Shown here in pieces: positions 3,138 through 6,147 of a DNA stretch of 6,147 nucleotides (the first letter of the stretch is position 1; the number at the start of each line of letters is the position of its first letter). The stretch is from a virus, in IMG/VR virus record IMGVR_UViG_3300045988_010419. The stretch is one strand, 5' to 3'. The notes below the pieces were generated by a model. The model saw only the letters and a list, made by a program, of their open reading frames with translations, was not told the DNA's origin and ran no database searches. The translations under genes and the position numbers were made by a program.

Positions 3138-3530
3138 TTACACCCCCTTTCTGTATTTTTTCCCGGTTCGTACATCAAAGTGCACCCAGGATTTATATAC
3201 GATAATGCCGCATCCATCCGGTACGATTTCATTTAGCTTGTTGGCAAGTTCTTTTGGACTTATTCCATCTACCCGGATATCTGCTGCCATACCGCGCATA
3301 TGATAGCTGTATTTTGCTCCGTTGCATTTTTTGTTCCATTCTGGTGTTCTGTATCCGCTGGTTATAATGACCGGTTTCCCTAGCTTATGTCTTAAGATAT
3401 CCAGGATGGTGTATAGGTAGTCGTCTATGAATATTACCTGACTACCGTCTTTGCAAGCAAATTCCCTTACCCTAAAGTGTCTTGCTAGCTTTACGTTTCC
3501 ATCTGTGTCCATGATATAGCATTTAAGCAT
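3138..3530 (-). CDS. Zinc D-Ala-D-Ala carboxypeptidase-fold cell-wall peptidase (Peptidase_M15_3 / YcbK-DUF882-like), 130 aa; probable lysis enzyme
   Basis: The motifs are in canonical order: FRVREFACKDG, ITSGYRTPEWN, SYHMRGMAAD (H-x6-D zinc ligands), WVHFD (third ligand). The ATG at 3530 has AGGAGGG 9-10 nt upstream. The track start at 3539 is a TTG immediately abutting that SD and is less likely. Confidence 0.88.
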   Translation of the reverse strand: MLKCYIMDTDGNVKLARHFRVREFACKDGSQVIFIDDYLYTILDILRHKLGKPVIITSGYRTPEWNKKCNGAKYSYHMRGMAADIRVDGISPKELANKLNEIVPDGCGIIVYKSWVHFDVRTGKKYRKGV

Positions 3531-3535
3531 TTTTG

Positions 3536-3721
3536 TCAACCCTCCTTTTCTGTGAAGTACAGCTTTATTTCTTCAATCTTGTACAGGCTGTAGATTCCTT
3601 TGTGTTCTTCTGCGTATTCCTTTGCTCTCTTTTTTGCGTTTTTCGGTTCATCATTGATTTTTAATACTGTGGTCATGCTGTCGTCGTCGTTCCAACTTCT
3701 CAGTTCATATCTGTGTTTCAT
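3536..3721 (-). CDS. Hypothetical protein, 61 aa, hydrophilic; first gene downstream of the intergenic promoter
   Basis: The ATG at 3721 is preceded by AGAAAGGAAGGTG (a near-perfect anti-SD complement) plus a 6-nt spacer. The track start at 3730 is the GTG inside that SD. The stop TGA lies 5 nt upstream of the ATG I call for the peptidase gene and overlaps the alternative TTG start at 3539. Confidence 0.65.
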   Translation of the reverse strand: MKHRYELRSWNDDDSMTTVLKINDEPKNAKKRAKEYAEEHKGIYSLYKIEEIKLYFTEKEG

Positions 3722-3748
3722 TTTTAGCACCTTCCTTTCTGTGATTAT

Positions 3749-3777
3749 ATTTTATCATATTTTTTAAAAAAAGTCAA
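3749..3777 (-). promoter_or_regulatory. Sigma70/SigA-type promoter: -35 TTGACT (3777-3772), 17-nt spacer, extended -10 TGATAAAAT (-10 hexamer 3754-3749)
   Basis: Minus strand reads aacTTGACTttttttaaaaaataTGaTAAAATataatcacagaaaggaaggtg. It has an A/T-rich UP-like flank and would give a leader of about 20 nt to the ATG at 3721. Confidence 0.6.
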
Positions 3778-3908
3778 GTTTTTTTTAGAATTTTATTGAT
3801 ATATCAGTAGCCTGTTTTGCTCCTTTGTTTTGAATGGCGCTTTAGCGCCTTGCCGTGCGTAGCGTATGCGGAGCTCGGCTAATCCATTCATTATGAGCGC
3901 TGTGCGCG

Positions 3909-4021
3909 TTTTCAACACTTTCAACACTTTCAACAGGTTTTCAACAAAATGTTGCACAATGATTTCCGTCATTTTGACGGACTTTCAACATTTCAACAAT
4001 TTTTCAACAAAACTTTCAATA
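3909..4021 (+). repeat. Iteron array: 7 exact plus 1 degenerate copies of (T)TTCAACA in two clusters of four flanking a 6-bp hairpin
   Basis: TTCAACA occurs at 3911, 3920, 3929, 3940 and at 3984, 3992, 4003, with TTCAATA at 4015. All copies share one orientation, with spacings of 9, 9, 11 and 8, 11, 12 nt. The central hairpin is tccgtc-atttt-gacgga at 3965-3981. Confidence 0.9.
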
Positions 4022-4117
4022 TTGTTTTTTGCTTTTTATTTACGCTTTAACGTTAAATTTTAGTACTTATCAACTTTTCCACATTGCCTACTACTACTCC
4101 TACAACAAGTTAATATA

Positions 4118-4168
4118 ATATACGCGTGTGTGCGCACGCGCGTTTGCGCGCGTGCGCGCGCGCGCGCA
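4118..4168. repeat. CG-rich alternating purine-pyrimidine tract (26 nt + TT + 24 nt) with internal 11-bp GC hairpin
   Basis: 4118-4143 atatacgcgtgtgtgcgcacgcgcgt and 4145-4168 tgcgcgcgtgcgcgcgcgcgcgca alternate Pu/Py without a break. (GC)7 runs 4154-4167. 4132-4142 pairs perfectly with 4147-4157 around loop TTTG. Confidence 0.9.
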
Positions 4169-4199
4169 AAGCGGCAGCCCCAAGATTGGGGCGTGACGC

Positions 4200-4227
4200 A
4201 AGGGGTTGACTTTTAAGTCAACCCCTT
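4200..4227. other. 12-bp perfect stem-loop (aaggggttgact-ttta-agtcaacccctt)
   Basis: Base-by-base pairing of 4200-4211 with 4216-4227 around a 4-nt loop. A further 5-bp GC hairpin lies at 4177-4192 (gcccc-aagatt-ggggc). Confidence 0.85.
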
Positions 4228-4267
4228 TGAATCACTGAATAGACTGATACATGGAGTCCATAAATGA

Positions 4268-4309
4268 CACCTAGCCAAGTACCTTACTTGATAGGTACTT
4301 GGCTAGGTG
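4268..4309 (-). terminator. 17-bp perfect stem / 8-nt loop hairpin starting 14 nt after the VP4 stop; candidate transcription terminator and/or ssDNA origin structure
   Basis: 4268-4284 cacctagccaagtacct pairs with 4293-4309 aggtacttggctaggtg. On the coding strand it is followed by TCATTTAT, a modest U-tract. The structure is certain but the function is inferred. Confidence 0.5.
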
Positions 4310-4323
4310 ACACCATGACACTG

Positions 4324-5343
4324 TTAAAGTGTCCCTCTCTTCTTCATCTGCTTCTTTATCACTCTCTCTTTCGTTTTACACTGTTCTGCAAAGTCTGCAT
4401 TTTCGTACTTTAGTCGGTTTTCTGCGATTGCTGCCGCTTGCCTGTTCTGTTTAATTCTCCACAATCTTTGTGGGTTTTCTGCTTCCATCATTTTTTCATA
4501 ATAACGTGGAATTTGTGCTTGTTTGCCGTTTGTGCATTGGATGTAGCCTTGTCTCCAGATTTCTGCTTTGTGCTCTTGATAATAGTGGTCTCCTAAGCCC
4601 GGCTTGAGGCTCATACATGCAAAAGGTTTTTGTTGCCCTAGTTCATAGTACTTGTTTGCTTTTTGACCGTCTATCTCATACATTTTTTTTGTGACGTATC
4701 CTGCAACATATCTATACGTTTCTGGTACTGCTTGCGCTATTTGGATTTGACCCATGCCCCATAGGTTTTCTAGCCATTTACTTGTGAAATATCCGTTGTG
4801 TTGTATCTTGTATAGGTGCTCTAGGTCTGTTGGTTGCCATCCGTATAGAATCATGTGATAGTGCGGTCTTGCTGTCTGTTCTCCGTACTCTCCCGCTACA
4901 AAATAGCGTAATTTGCCCCTATAAGCCTTTCTGAGACGTTTTAAGAACTTTTGAACGTCAGTATACAGTAACGTTTGGACGCTTTCAGGGCGCTTCTCTC
5001 CCGGTTTCCAGACGTATTGTACTTTTCGCATGATTTCACCTGTGTTTACTATCATGCCTGGTACATGGTCATCATCATAAGTTAACGTGATAAACCAAAC
5101 TTCTTCTTTTGGATAGTCTCGTGCTTCTAATTCTATTCGTGTTGTCCAGTCCTCCCTTTGTCTGATTCTGCATCCGATGCATTGCCCGCATGGTATCAAC
5201 ATGACGTTTTTTCGGTACATCAAATCTTCATATTTGAGCTGTTTTCCCGATATTTCAGAAAAACGGGCGAGTGAATACACCCGCCCGCTTATGCTTTTGT
5301 CTTCCGGGTTGTACAGCCTTATTAATGGCTTGTAACAACTCAT
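4324..5343 (-). CDS. VP4: VP4 replication initiation protein (HUH rolling-circle endonuclease), 339 aa
   Basis: Contains a Cys cluster IPCGQCIGCRIRQREDW, motif 1 FITLTYDD, HUH motif RPHYHMILYGW, and the catalytic Tyr motif YRYVAGYVTKK. SD AGGTGAT lies 8 nt upstream. An ATGA overlap with the VP2 stop is at 5340-5343. Confidence 0.93.
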   Translation of the reverse strand: MSCYKPLIRLYNPEDKSISGRVYSLARFSEISGKQLKYEDLMYRKNVMLIPCGQCIGCRIRQREDWTTRIELEARDYPKEEVWFITLTYDDDHVPGMIVNTGEIMRKVQYVWKPGEKRPESVQTLLYTDVQKFLKRLRKAYRGKLRYFVAGEYGEQTARPHYHMILYGWQPTDLEHLYKIQHNGYFTSKWLENLWGMGQIQIAQAVPETYRYVAGYVTKKMYEIDGQKANKYYELGQQKPFACMSLKPGLGDHYYQEHKAEIWRQGYIQCTNGKQAQIPRYYEKMMEAENPQRLWRIKQNRQAAAIAENRLKYENADFAEQCKTKERVIKKQMKKRGTL

Positions 5344-6147
5344 TTCAAATAATCACCTGGCTTTCGTTTTTCTCCGTAGCTTCCTGTTTTGTCCTGTGGC
5401 TTTATGCTTCTGCCTTGTTCTGCACCTTTGCCTTTTTCTGTCTTTGCTGTTGCATCTTTAATGGCTTCGCTTGTGTCGTTTCCGACTTTGGTTAGTGTTT
5501 TCATCAGTCCGTAGGGTGTCATTTGCGTTGTGCTTAGCATCTGCTGCCAGCTTTGTGCCGCATTGTACCAGTCGCTTTTGCTCCAGCTTGAGCTTGAGTA
5601 TGCATTTGGTACAAATCCACCGCTTCGGCTTACTCCTAGTGCACTACTGCTTGCAAGTCCCATACTTGCACCGCTGATTGTGCCGGCGCTTCCACCCGGT
5701 GTGCTCGCTCCCCCATTTGAGAATGCTAGGATAGGGTTAAGCCCCGCTTTTCGCATGTCTTCAACTGCACGCTGGTATGCTGTGCTTGACATGTGCTCTT
5801 GCCATTCACGGTTCGCTAGTGCTTCTGCACTGTTGTAGTTCATTGCTACGCTGTTTTCAATGTGGTTGTATACGCCTTGCATGATTGCTTGTAAGGTGTT
5901 GTAACCCATCTGTTTAAGCATACTTTGACTGTTGTATTTACCTTGCATGGCAGCCTCTTGCCCTTGGTATGCGTATGCTTGCTTTAGCCAGTCGTTTACC
6001 TGTTGAATGTTTGTGCCTGCTTGACTTCCACTTTCAGAGTGTCCGCCGCCTTGGCTTACGCTTCCACCTTGGCTTTGGCTGTTTCCTGTCTGACCCCATC
6101 CGCCTAAAGCTCCAGTGACGTTTTTTGCTGCTCCTGCGATTGTTCCG
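5340..6147 (-). CDS. VP2: VP2 minor capsid / DNA pilot protein, 3' segment (runs off the window edge; the true start is the ATG at 161 across the circular junction; total 289 aa)
   Basis: Carries the characteristic motif NREWQEHMSSTAYQRAVEDMRKAGLNPILAF. Hand translation from 6146 down to 5949 gives GTIAGAAKNVTGALGGWGQTGNSQSQGGSVSQGGGHSESGSQAGTNIQQVNDWLKQAYAYQGQEAA with no stop, in frame with the track ORF that starts at M 5948. Confidence 0.88.
   Translation of the reverse strand, partial: GTIAGAAKNVTGALGGWGQTGNSQSQGGSVSQGGGHSESGSQAGTNIQQVNDWLKQAYAYQGQEAAMQGKYNSQSMLKQMGYNTLQAIMQGVYNHIENSVAMNYNSAEALANREWQEHMSSTAYQRAVEDMRKAGLNPILAFSNGGASTPGGSAGTISGASMGLASSSALGVSRSGGFVPNAYSSSSWSKSDWYNAAQSWQQMLSTTQMTPYGLMKTLTKVGNDTSEAIKDATAKTEKGKGAEQGRSIKPQDKTGSYGEKRKPGDYLK
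6049..6147. repeat. Terminal redundancy copy 2 (identical to 1-99)
   Basis: Same 99-nt string as positions 1-99. It lies inside the VP2 coding frame, so it is coding sequence seen twice rather than a structural repeat. Confidence 0.95.

Follow-up and report, generated by a model that had tools for sequence, protein, structure and literature searches.

A DnaA-box and DnaA-trio module in a gokushovirus genome resembles the unwinding module of Ruminococcus/Oscillospiraceae chromosome origins

Between VP4 and orf64 of a circular gokushovirus genome of 6048 nt lies a discrete 215-nt module (positions 3908–4122) that is probably a self-contained mimic, acting on double-stranded DNA, of the host origin unwinding module. 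The genome was analyzed as a window of 6,147 nt, meaning the whole stretch of IMG/VR record IMGVR_UViG_3300045988_010419, which carries a 99-nt terminal duplication. All elements of the module read on the + strand, in the order eight distal boxes, two proximal tandem boxes, a 4-nt gap, triplets, and an AT-rich stretch. The composition, order, polarity, spacing, and conservation of these elements, together with their independence of Rep type, position, and orientation, are observations at the sequence level. The TTTCAACA repeats, at first taken for iterons, are predicted DnaA boxes of a Ruminococcus/Oscillospiraceae variant, and the sequence suggests DnaA binding, unwinding, helicase loading, and a benefit to the phage.

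The repeat array is part of a larger module

The initial annotation of this DNA described seven exact copies and one degenerate copy of TTCAACA, spaced 8–12 nt apart, and both descriptions are borne out. The seven exact copies lie on the + strand at 3911–4009 and the degenerate copy, TTTCAATA, at 4014–4021; the array as a whole spans 3909–4021, with start-to-start steps of 9, 9, and 11 nt in the first cluster, 44 nt between the clusters, and 8, 11, and 12 nt in the second. One further TTCAACA in the window is on the opposite strand. About 1.5 copies are expected by chance (mean 1.47), and a count of eight was reached in none of 200 dinucleotide-preserving shuffles. The long non-coding region (3722/3731–4323, approximately 600 nt or 10% of the genome) is likewise as reported. 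The unit does not end at 4021, however, as had been claimed; two more boxes (4067–4075 and 4075–4083) and the triplets at 4088–4102 belong to it. The evolutionary limits of the module are 3908 and approximately 4120–4122, the edge near 4120 being set by inversion breakpoints.

Several other readings of the array were considered and set aside. Two small ORFs that overlap it (3866–4063 on the + strand and 3793–3972 on the − strand) were rejected as genes because, of 73 close relatives, only 26 keep the first reading frame open and only 36 the second. An Rfam scan of the whole window (E ≤ 1) returned two sub-threshold chance matches and no known RNA family. The idea that TTGAAA on the other strand of the repeat acts as a −35 element found no support in a promoter scan, which gave one weak 9-of-12 match inside the array and no matched −10 element, and the array was rejected as a set of promoters. 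A strong sigma-70-like promoter is located outside the array, 130–240 nt away (3777→3749).

The first predicted distal cluster (cluster A, boxes 1–4; 3909–3946, + strand) reads TTTTCAACA, CTTTCAACA, CTTTCAACA, TTTTCAACA at steps of 9, 9, and 11 nt and has a near-twin in Ruminococcus sp. RUG11850, with spacing 9-9-9-11. It is followed by an inverted, degenerate box-like element (3950–3958, − strand; TGTTGCACA on the + strand, TGTGCAACA on the −), which is kept as (T/A)GTTGCACA in 88 of 121 modules; inverted boxes likewise separate clusters in Ruminococcus oriC. The palindrome between the clusters, TCCGTC-ATTTT-GACGGA (3965–3981), is present in the window as the initial annotation had noted, but it is a variable feature rather than the conserved centerpiece it was thought to be. 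Relatives have TTCGTC/GACGAA (a compensatory change), the different pair TGCACAAA/TTTGTGCA, or no palindrome, and it is absent from KT264784 and KT264801. A Spo0A-box reading of this palindrome was rejected: TTCGTCA-N3-TGACGAA occurs in 25 of the 121 modules, is inexact in the window, and shows no enrichment in Ruminococcus origins. The second predicted distal cluster (cluster B, boxes 5–8; 3982–4021, + strand) reads CTTTCAACA, ATTTCAACA, TTTTCAACA, CTTTCAATA at steps of 8, 11, and 12 nt, and its last box is CTTTCAACA in most of the 121 modules.

Beyond a moderately conserved, T-rich to AT-rich spacer (4022–4066, + strand), in which 20-nt windows reach 85% A+T, lie the two proximal tandem boxes on the + strand (4067–4083), TTATCAACT at 4067–4075 and TTTTCCACA at 4075–4083. 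Their start-to-start distance is 8 nt, as in 94 modules (9 nt in 15), and the second box in relatives is TTTTCCACA, TTTTCCACT, or (A/C)TTTCAACA. The gap that follows, TTGC on the + strand (4084–4087), is C-rich in relatives (CTCC, ACCT, GCCT, GCCC), as are most of the gaps among 114 modules, 96 of which have a gap of exactly 4 nt. The candidate DnaA-trios (4088–4102) read CTA CTA CTA CTC CTA on the + strand and 3ʹ-GAT GAT GAT GAG GAT-5ʹ on the − strand, which is the strand that DnaA would bind as single-stranded DNA, and runs of three to seven consecutive trios are found in 110 of 114 modules. CAA CAA comes directly after the trios (4103–4108), at the start of the AT-rich stretch CAACAAGTTAATATAATATA (4103–4122, 85% A+T), a presumed duplex-unwinding element to which no strand is assigned. 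This element is short, with approximately 14–20 bp to the GC-rich tract at the module edge and a meltable region of approximately 35–40 bp. Both the CTACTACTAC core and CTACAACAAGTT are invariant at a level of at least 95% across the 121 modules. A strand-separation scaffold based on the module would consist of TTATCAACTTTTCCACATTGC and CTACTACTACTCCTA.

The proximal part matches the basal unwinding system

In order, polarity, and spacing, the predicted elements of the module match the basal unwinding system (BUS) of oriC as established by experiment (Richardson 2016/2019; Pelliciari 2021). In the incC of B. subtilis, the BUS comprises DnaA boxes #6 and #7, a GC-rich gap, DnaA-trios, and an AT-rich element (PMC8287927, PMC6669920), and its "GC-rich region" averages 4 bp (PMC8287927). 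The published definition calls for a DnaA box with at most two mismatches to TTATCCACA or to a species-specific box; an optional second tandem box in the same orientation, with at most four mismatches and at most 3 bp away; a box-to-trio spacer of 0–16 bp; and at least three consecutive trios (3ʹ-NAN-5ʹ, consensus 3ʹ-GAT-5ʹ) of correct polarity relative to the box (PMC8287927). In the window, these parts are represented by TTTTCCACA (one mismatch to TTATCCACA), TTATCAACT (two mismatches), the 4-nt TTGC, and five consecutive NAN trios, four of them GAT, with the polarity checked against the B. subtilis scaffold. Polarity and layout are those of that validated scaffold, 5ʹ-TTATCCACAAATCCACAGGCCC|TACTATTACTTCTACTA. 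A strict version of the BUS pattern was used because the published "general" pattern is not discriminating (15 matches observed vs 9.8 expected); the strict pattern has a single match in the genome and none in any of 1000 shuffles.

The module is conserved, moves as a block, and keeps its polarity

Comparison of related intergenic regions, proposed in the initial annotation as a check, showed that the octamer array persists, whereas the central hairpin varies or is missing. Of 80 genomes picked by Rep similarity alone, 78 have the array, and in 71 proven-circular genomes each of the 73 arrays is followed by the box-trio element. Three contigs that seemed to be module-less or BUS-less relatives were rejected as exceptions: L015 is a chimeric contig with tailed-phage portal, Mu-F, and terminase genes, and L032 and L038 are linear, with a break that falls within the intergenic region. 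A scan of IMG/VR with a two-copy octamer was too unspecific for use.

In 7 genomes the module is inverted whole, and in approximately 20 others it occupies the interval between VP2 and VP4; every moved or inverted copy keeps its internal box-to-trio polarity. Such block movement with polarity kept is expected of a double-stranded DNA origin, not of a single-stranded or Rep-linked element. The Reps are 37–45% identical across phages whose modules are 72–80% identical in nucleotide sequence, and the array is missing from the classical gokushoviruses Chp2, phiMH2K, and SpV4, whose Reps are related. Because it moves as a unit, spans divergent Reps, and is absent from these three phages, the module is not considered a Rep iteron origin.

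The flipped genomes have common junctions, and their module is 77–81% identical to that of the window, compared with 86–95% in the co-oriented close relatives sampled. Shared junctions and a diverged module point to one old inversion rather than active switching, and a phase-variable inverton was rejected on the same grounds; a mix of orientations among near-identical genomes, as an inverton would give, is not seen, and neither clear inverted repeats at the GC-rich module flanks nor terminal inverted repeats or target duplications were found. An attP of the dif/Xer type was also rejected. The reverse complement of 4108–4140 resembles the XerD arm and center of E. coli dif, with the XerC-like part shifted by 4 nt, but close relatives have unrelated sequence in place of the GC-rich half, and no prophage was found among the bacterial matches. 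The AT-rich half of this dif-like stretch is better explained as the unwinding element.

Chromosome origins of Ruminococcus/Oscillospiraceae share the design

Of 120 matches to the array in bacterial genomes, 10 lie beside dnaA/dnaN, where approximately 0.4 would be expected by chance; every one of these 10 is of Oscillospirales type. The gene order at the Oscillospirales-type loci is dnaA, array, dnaN, recF (Pfam). Within Ruminococcus/Oscillospiraceae, the dnaA-dnaN spacers contain 13–20 TTCAACA boxes and end in ...GTTTCAACA-CCCC-CTACTACTACTACTA; ends found among these origins are TTTTCCACA-GCCC-(CTA)5, TTTTCCACAGTTTCAACA-TACC-(CTA)5, and GTTTTCAACAGTTTCAACA-CCCC-(CTA)5. Examples are JAFYFU010000007.1 (L352), CAMWQJ010000019.1 (L304), and JAFUWN010000005.1 (L380), and the proximal boxes of the last two are laid out as in the phage module. 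Oscillospiraceae oriC and the module have in common the TTTCAACA box variant in clusters of three to five at 9–11 bp, occasional TTTTCCACA boxes, inverted boxes between clusters, and a terminal box-box-NNCC-(CTA)n-AT design. Unlike the module, the host spacers are 480–1280 bp long, with their 13–20 boxes in both orientations, and the (CTA)5 of host oriC corresponds to CTA CTA CTA CTC CTA in the window. The likeness extends to motifs and architecture but to no long alignment of homologous sequence, and the module may have arisen by capture of a host oriC or by convergence, both of which are compatible with the sequences.

The reading of the repeats as DnaA boxes draws further on their substitutions. 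At homologous positions in the 121 modules, TTTTCAACA interchanges with TTTTCCACA (40 modules at box 4) and with the perfect consensus TTATCCACA (15 at box 7, where TTTTCCACA is found in 10), and DoriC uses TTTTCAACA as the species-specific box for Chlamydophila. Half of the distal boxes have three mismatches to the E. coli consensus; they were judged good because Oscillospiraceae origins use them. Among the roles offered in the initial annotation, a host-factor array resembling DnaA boxes is strongly supported. TTATCAACT at 4067–4075 had rightly been flagged there, while the overlapping TTTTCCACA, the trios, and the Oscillospiraceae oriC match had been missed.

Box variant and BUS design together suggest a host within Ruminococcus/Oscillospiraceae. 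An exact-protein look-up returned the source metagenome only and indicated no host. The octamer array is also found at non-origin sites, namely inside the rep gene of a RepA_N plasmid, beside a prophage portal gene, and next to a melibiase gene. As the module resides in a phage genome and not in a chromosome beside dnaA/dnaN, it is not oriC itself, although by its sequence it is predicted to work like an oriC module.

Proposed function and alternative explanations

Under the preferred explanation, host DnaA-ATP would bind both the two proximal boxes and the eight co-oriented distal ones, the latter concentrating DnaA locally. From the proximal boxes, a DnaA oligomer would extend onto the 3ʹ-GAT-5ʹ trios of one strand, and the adjacent AT-rich stretch would melt. 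The opened replicative-form duplex would then admit the host helicase-loading machinery. In this way the phage duplex may be replicated (theta-type) or maintained without Rep, or the module may at least be a site of host-driven opening and priming. A more far-reaching version, in which this gokushovirus clade carries a complete miniature oriC and persists in Ruminococcus/Oscillospiraceae as a DnaA-dependent minichromosome, keeping pace with the host cell cycle in a Rep-independent, plasmid-like carrier state, is a tentative proposal that is somewhat doubtful at present. Weighing against the main explanation are the Rep-driven replication mode that a microvirus already has, the shortness of the AT-rich element and its meltable region, the three mismatches to the E. 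coli consensus in half of the distal boxes, a likeness to oriC limited to motifs and architecture, and the occurrence of the octamer array in non-origin places.

An unlikely but serious alternative is that the module binds host DnaA without firing, as a sink that disturbs host initiation or genes under DnaA control, a tether to membrane DnaA, or a DnaA-dependent switch on the phage promoter nearby. The DnaA-box evidence is the same for this alternative as for an unwinding module, the AT-rich element is short, the phage has its own Rep, and the sigma-70-like promoter described above could be the target of a switch. In addition, the iss region of T5-like phages, a long non-coding, oriC-like stretch thought not to be replicative, has eight conserved DnaA and variant boxes, including TTATCAACA, that are presumed to bind DnaA (bioRxiv 10.1101/866236). 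However, the most invariant parts of the module are the trios, the fixed 4-nt gap, and CTACAACAAGTT, not the boxes; a sink or tether could do without these parts, which in oriC serve only to open DNA, and distance and orientation to promoters vary between lineages. It is very unlikely that the array is instead a centromere-like or regulatory site read by a small phage protein (ORF5-like, orf64, or orf75) or by some host factor that is not DnaA. Its short direct repeats, set 8–12 bp apart in two groups about a core, do recall ParR/omega-type sites; the genome has small ORFs to which no function is assigned; and the four TTTCAACA repeats inside the RepA_N plasmid rep gene (L322) mean that another protein may read similar repeats. 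Yet no DNA-binding Pfam domain was found in any small ORF, and orf64 and orf75 are not common to all module-bearing lineages: the annotated genes of KT264784 and KT264801 are VP1, VP2, VP4, and VP5 only, plus VP3 in KT264801. VP5 is found in Chp2 as well, which is without the array, and a small-protein site would leave the substitution by consensus boxes, the trios, and the identity with oriC unexplained.

The initial annotation had favored an iteron-plus-hairpin origin of the kind known from rolling-circle plasmids and CRESS-DNA viruses, with the VP4 Rep as a candidate binder, and this can be credited with only the slightest chance of being correct. It accounts for direct repeats near a hairpin, for a long non-coding region adjoining the Rep gene, and for the recovery of the array by Rep similarity alone. 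The boxes nevertheless remain identical between phages with strongly divergent Reps, with no Rep co-variation; the module is flipped, or lies in another intergenic region, with respect to the Rep gene; the related Reps of Chp2, phiMH2K, and SpV4 occur without it; and host oriC is built of the same boxes and triplets. The central stem-loop, moreover, differs or is absent among relatives. A better nick-site candidate is the conserved long-stem hairpin at 4265–4312, with its phiX-like ACTTGAT loop, which stays with VP4 and not with the module. It is barely credible that the array is a low-complexity expansion, a selfish miniature mobile element, or an invertible promoter segment. For these ideas speak a discrete segment of approximately 213 nt found in both orientations between GC-rich flanks and the −35-like TTGAAA. 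They are opposed by nucleotide identity of 72–80% across lineages whose proteins are approximately 40% identical, by the invariant internal geometry, by the marks of a single old event without active switching, and by the lack of terminal inverted repeats, target duplications, and a matched −10 element.

Implications

In the textbook view, microviruses replicate by a rolling circle that their own Rep drives, and a conserved DnaA origin module of host type would mean a second mode of replication or persistence, dependent on the host initiator. If the preferred explanation is true, the module could account for the approximately 10% of non-coding DNA retained in these genomes. If the more far-reaching version holds, no DnaA-trio origin would have been described in a virus before this one; searches of the literature turned up neither DnaA boxes nor trios in Microviridae. 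Few gut gokushoviruses have a known host, and on that version the pointers to Ruminococcus/Oscillospiraceae would amount to the first sequence-based host assignment for this group of microviruses, which is abundant in the guts of humans and animals. Mimicry of host origins may also be of wider use in predicting phage hosts, as a signal that has been overlooked. Additionally, the module would offer a natural, minimal (approximately 215 bp), evolution-tested version of an origin from a clade rich in uncultivated members, useful for the study of DnaA-trios and for Clostridia replicons.

Comparison with known systems

The pMV158 "bind" locus and the iterons of CRESS viruses are read by their own Rep, co-vary with it, and are fixed relative to the nick hairpin. 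The module shares with them short direct repeats in non-coding DNA near a stem-loop, on a small circular replicon that encodes a Rep; unlike them, it shows neither co-variation with Rep nor a fixed position or orientation relative to the nick hairpin. The plasmids pSC101, P1, F, and RK2 need 17–22-bp iterons bound by a plasmid Rep initiator, whereas the module has DnaA-type elements only and in this respect is minichromosome-like, alongside an HUH rolling-circle Rep. Theta iteron plasmids combine DnaA boxes and an AT-rich region with host DnaA and a helicase loader (PMC4980987), and the module resembles both these plasmids and oriC minichromosomes in placing DnaA boxes and an AT-rich region on a small circular replicon. 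The iss boxes of T5, a double-stranded DNA tailed phage of Enterobacteria, differ from those of the module in being paired in inverted repeats, with no trios or unwinding element described, and in their proposed role, which is DNA-injection arrest rather than replication.

The closest parallel is the BUS. The module differs from it in being known from sequence alone, in its location in a 6-kb single-stranded DNA phage away from dnaA/dnaN, in the compactness of the whole unit (approximately 215 bp), in its eight tightly packed, co-oriented distal boxes, and in its shorter AT-rich part. Shared by both are two head-to-tail boxes 8–9 bp apart, in the layout of B. subtilis boxes #6/#7 (TTATCCACA-AATCCACA); a 4-nt C/G-rich gap; at least three 3ʹ-GAT-5ʹ triplets opposite the box reading strand, followed by AT-rich DNA; and further boxes upstream, which parallel the distal and proximal subregions of B. 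subtilis incC. In both, the box-to-trio polarity is always kept.

Genome organization and the intergenic repeat array

Judged from its sequence, an intergenic element of this gokushovirus is rated as a predicted origin module of the DnaA-trio type, borne by a single-stranded DNA (ssDNA) phage. The window spans one full circular genome (6048 nt) plus an exact 99-nt terminal duplication (1-99 and 6049-6147). The genome was seen in a single metagenome assembly only (ENA ERZ2117763, where it forms a contig of 6103 nt), and its nearest GenBank relatives are gokushoviruses of the human, pig and monkey gut (top match KT264791, 84.6% identity). The minus strand carries every gene: VP1 capsid (200-1882), the Chlamy_scaf scaffold protein (1879-2337), an ORF5-like protein (2270-2509), orf75 (2633-2860), an M15 peptidase (Peptidase_M15_3 cell-wall hydrolase; 3138-3539, E = 7e-22), orf64 (3536-3730), the Rep VP4 (4324-5343) and a VP2-like protein (5340-5948). 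The peptidase gene is an accessory lysis gene that some gokushoviruses lack. The long non-coding region described in the initial annotation (3722-4323) is the only one of its kind in the genome, at 3722/3731-4323. The best sigma-70-like promoter of this region (3749-3777, minus strand; TTGACT-17-TG-TAAAAT, 10/12 matches) immediately precedes orf64 and is 130 nt distant from the array.

The eight repeats described earlier, in two clusters, were confirmed as seven exact plus-strand copies of TTCAACA at 3911-4009 (1.47 expected) and one degenerate copy at 4014-4021; eight copies arose in 0 of 200 shuffles. Spacings are 9, 9 and 11, then 44, then 8, 11 and 12, and the reported tccgtc/gacgga hairpin is present as the palindrome TCCGTC-ATTTT-GACGGA at 3965-3981. 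Two small ORFs across the array are open in just 26/73 and 36/73 close relatives and are therefore not genes. Rfam returned no match.

Three independent lines of evidence identify the TTTCAACA repeats as predicted DnaA boxes. The species-specific box for Chlamydophila is TTTTCAACA, given as its complement AAAAGTTGT, and TTATCAACA-type boxes occur in clostridial elements of the basal unwinding system (BUS) of bacterial oriC (PMC8287927, supplementary table). Across 121 distinct phage modules, the repeat is exchanged for canonical boxes at homologous positions: TTTTCAACA stands at box 4 in 71 modules and at box 7 in 81; TTTTCCACA takes these places in 40 and 10, respectively, and the perfect consensus TTATCCACA takes box 7 in 15. 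At proximal box 10, 64 modules have TTTTCCACA or TTTTCCACT and 34 have (A/C/T/G)TTTCAACA. Together with Oscillospirales-type dnaA-dnaN arrays, the Chlamydophila box and this interchange bear out a host-factor, DnaA-box-like array, which had been offered as an alternative to a Rep origin.

A predicted basal unwinding system in the phage module

In distant relatives, the most conserved block is window 4067-4122 rather than the eight repeats. It reads TTTTCAAC-TTTTCCACA-NNCC-CTA CTA CTA CT(A/C) CTA CAA CAA G-TTAATATA, in which TTTTCCACA agrees with the DnaA-box consensus TT(A/T)TNCACA (bioRxiv 10.1101/866236) and the triplets, on the complementary strand, are 3'-GAT-5', the DnaA-trio consensus (PMC8287927). 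By its published definition, a BUS has a box with no more than two mismatches, with or without a second one in tandem; after a gap of ~4 bp come three or more trios, then AT-rich DNA (PMC8287927). The phage module conforms to this definition in its boxes, gap and trios, and the short AT-rich stretch beyond them is the putative unwinding element. Polarity was checked against the experimentally validated B. subtilis scaffold (5'-ACTTATCCACAAATCCACAGGCCC|TACTATTACTTCTACTA-3'), with which the phage element shares order, polarity and spacing. The strict BUS pattern has a single match in the genome, and none of 1000 dinucleotide shuffles produced it, whereas the loose published pattern is non-discriminating (15 matches observed, 9.8 expected).

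Conservation, inversion and relocation of the module

With the intergenic region as query, 50 phage records were matched, and the widely common core was query 178-390 (window 3908-4120). Locus sets selected by pattern are ascertainment-biased; the one set free of this bias comprises 80 IMG/VR genomes picked solely by a Rep at least 90% identical. The initial annotation had proposed comparing relatives' intergenic regions; the octamer is present in 3-12 copies in 78 of these 80 genomes, and the exceptions are one chimeric and one truncated contig. Among the records encountered, L015 (IMGVR_UViG_3300045988_086966) is a chimeric assembly, since microvirus sequence is joined in it to tailed-phage genes (portal, Mu-F and terminase). 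Two different microvirus genomes are combined in each of L018 and L002, and in L018 both have their own box array.

The array is reversed in six Rep-anchored genomes, in which blastn places the inversion at precisely 3908-4120 with both flanks collinear. These genomes have identical junctions and a more diverged module, indicating one old event rather than an active inversion switch. The module lies downstream of VP4 and flipped in KT264801, and between VP2 and VP4 in KT264784; among the matches listed (145 non-identical microvirus genomes), placement is of the window type for 98 arrays, flipped for 7 and between VP2 and VP4 for ~20. Flips and relocation point to a self-contained double-strand element, as they would be intolerable for a strand-specific ssDNA element or one tied to a Rep nick site. 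Directly adjoining the module is a GC-rich alternating purine-pyrimidine tract, (CG/TG)n, of ~46 nt (4123-4168), prone to Z-DNA or cruciform formation; similar tracts stand beside the module or hairpin in KT264784, KT264801 and many relatives, and are the flanks where inversion took place.

A box-trio element follows the array on the same strand in 73 of 73 cases (71 distinct proven-circular genomes); 70 are strict, two have one interrupting substitution and one reads CTATTACTACGACTAC. Two seeming exceptions to this pairing are contigs broken within the intergenic region. The box-to-trio gap is exactly 4 nt in 96/114 modules, the spacing of the proximal boxes is 8 or 9 nt throughout, and the trio core CTACTACTAC and subsequent CTACAACAAGTT are at least 95% invariant.

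Bacterial origins with the same octamer

In a test capable of refuting the DnaA-box idea, 185,579 bacterial species genomes were scanned for three adjacent TTTCAACA copies. Approximately 46 of the 120 matches listed are Oscillospiraceae, Ruminococcus or Clostridiales, and dnaA and/or dnaN fall within 10 of the 120 8-kb blocks around the listed matches (~0.4 expected). In every one of these ten the DnaA is of Oscillospirales type, and the array either sits in the spacer between dnaA and dnaN or precedes dnaA; Pfam bore out the order DnaA, array, DnaN, RecF. The origin spacers contain 13-20 TTCAACA copies, clustered at 9-11 bp, and end in TTTTCCACA-GCCC-(CTA)5-AT (L352, JAFYFU010000007.1), TTTTCCACAGTTTCAACA-TACC-(CTA)5 (L304, CAMWQJ010000019.1) or GTTTTCAACAGTTTCAACA-CCCC-(CTA)5 (L380, JAFUWN010000005.1); therefore, TTTCAACA sits at BUS box positions in these bacteria. 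A Ruminococcus contig bears gttTTCAACAttTTCAACActTTCAACAttTTCAACAggttTTCAACA, nearly the phage's first cluster, with 9-9-9-11 spacing. The likeness between the phage module and Oscillospiraceae oriC is at the level of motif and architecture, so capture and convergence are inseparable. The module's anatomy, this likeness and that to the validated system, and its evolutionary behaviour are direct observations. No prophages were found among the bacterial matches listed; we infer a Ruminococcus/Oscillospiraceae host.

The octamer array is also found at a few non-origin sites and on further mobile elements from the same bacteria. In Ruminococcus sp. RUG11850 (L383, CACYDZ010000036.1), 21 TTCAACA/TTCCACA boxes in both orientations occupy ~600 nt (500-1120), with a small ORF and then genes for a DUF6512 protein and a SpoU methylase beyond them; the 8-kb block is without dnaA/dnaN, and the field may represent either another DnaA-box cluster or an origin away from dnaA. 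A Eubacteriales MAG (L345, 7566-7920) has eleven octamer copies next to a prophage's SPP1-type portal gene, and a Ruminococcus MAG (L322, 4604-4637) has four within a gene for RepA_N plasmid replication. A 68-kb non-microvirus viral contig (L256, IMGVR_UViG_2531839741_000003) has 21 + 7 TTCAACA/TGTTGAA copies in both orientations plus TTTTCCACA at ~1900-2700, and in several further large IMG/VR contigs, arrays of 8-12 copies were not accompanied by a strict BUS. DnaA-box use may be common among mobile elements of these hosts.

Alternative readings and a candidate Rep origin

The initial annotation likened the array to iteron-plus-hairpin origins and named the Rep VP4 first among the candidate binders. 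Three configurations, however, have Reps just 37-45% identical to one another, almost as far apart as they are from the Chp2 Rep (30-32%), and VP1 proteins 40-46% identical, but modules that can be aligned over ~200 nt with 72-80% identity and share their boxes. Neither box array nor BUS was found in Chp2, phiMH2K or SpV4 (4.4-4.6 kb). Nor was the central hairpin conserved: relatives have TTCGTCA-TTT-TGACGAA, from which the window's TCCGTC/GACGGA differs by one compensatory pair, or TGCACAAA/TTTGTGCA, or none. Rep divergence against a kept module, the array-less phages, the variable palindrome and a separate VP4 hairpin led us to reject the module as a Rep origin. The Spo0A box is TGNCGAA, and TTCGTCA-TTT-TGACGAA contains two inverted matches; this reading was also rejected, the form being found in only 25/121 modules, inexact in the window and unenriched in Ruminococcus origins.

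The separate hairpin, long-stemmed with an ACTTGAT loop, lies directly after VP4 (4265-4312). It is kept even in bee- and tunicate-associated microviruses and stays with VP4 when the module flips; counterparts lie at 2904-2941 in Chp2 (L413), 512-544 in SpV4 (L415), 3562-3593 in L290 and 3045-3075 in L291. The phiX174 nick site is CAACTTG^ATA, which the window's loop and the ACTTG loops of Chp2 and SpV4 resemble, and this hairpin is the better Rep-origin candidate. ACTTG is on the coding strand in Chp2 and SpV4 and on the non-coding strand in the window and gut relatives. The window's T-rich strand is likewise non-coding (VP1 third-position T on the coding strand, 16%, versus 45% in Chp2 and 55% in SpV4), and the clade may possibly package the strand antisense to its genes. 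Composition alone cannot settle the packaged strand, because phiMH2K has the window's skew, yet no ACTTG-loop hairpin was found in it. Between VP4 and the GC tract, a perfect hairpin with a 13-bp stem (AAGGGGTTGACTT-TT-AAGTCAACCCCTT, 4200-4227) is ~93% conserved in relatives; without a T-run, it is no obvious terminator.

Proposed mechanism and comparison with known systems

Boxes that bind DnaA could also act purely as a sink or tether for DnaA, or as a regulator. We consider an actual origin or unwinding role more likely, because the trios, together with the 4-nt gap and AT-rich junction, are under the strongest constraint and are needed only for DNA opening. Host DnaA-ATP would occupy the eight distal and two proximal boxes on the double-stranded replicative form. 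The filled distal boxes would raise the local DnaA concentration, the role proposed for the distal subregion of B. subtilis incC (PMC8287927, PMC6669920). DnaA would then oligomerise along the minus strand of the window at its 3'-GAT-5' trios, 4088-4122 would open and the host helicase loader could gain entry. DnaA binding, opening, helicase loading and a benefit to the phage, as replicative-form amplification or plasmid-like persistence, are what we infer from the element's sequence.

In full-text searches of the literature, neither DnaA boxes nor DnaA-trios were found described for Microviridae, and no BUS was found reported for any phage. The nearest precedent comes from T5-like phages, whose injection-stop region carries eight DnaA boxes for which non-replicative DnaA binding was proposed (bioRxiv 10.1101/866236). 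In B. subtilis incC, reversing the proximal boxes #6/#7 inactivates the element and the distal boxes are flexible (PMC8287927, PMC6669920); in agreement with this, the box-to-trio polarity of the phage module is always kept, even where the whole unit flips.
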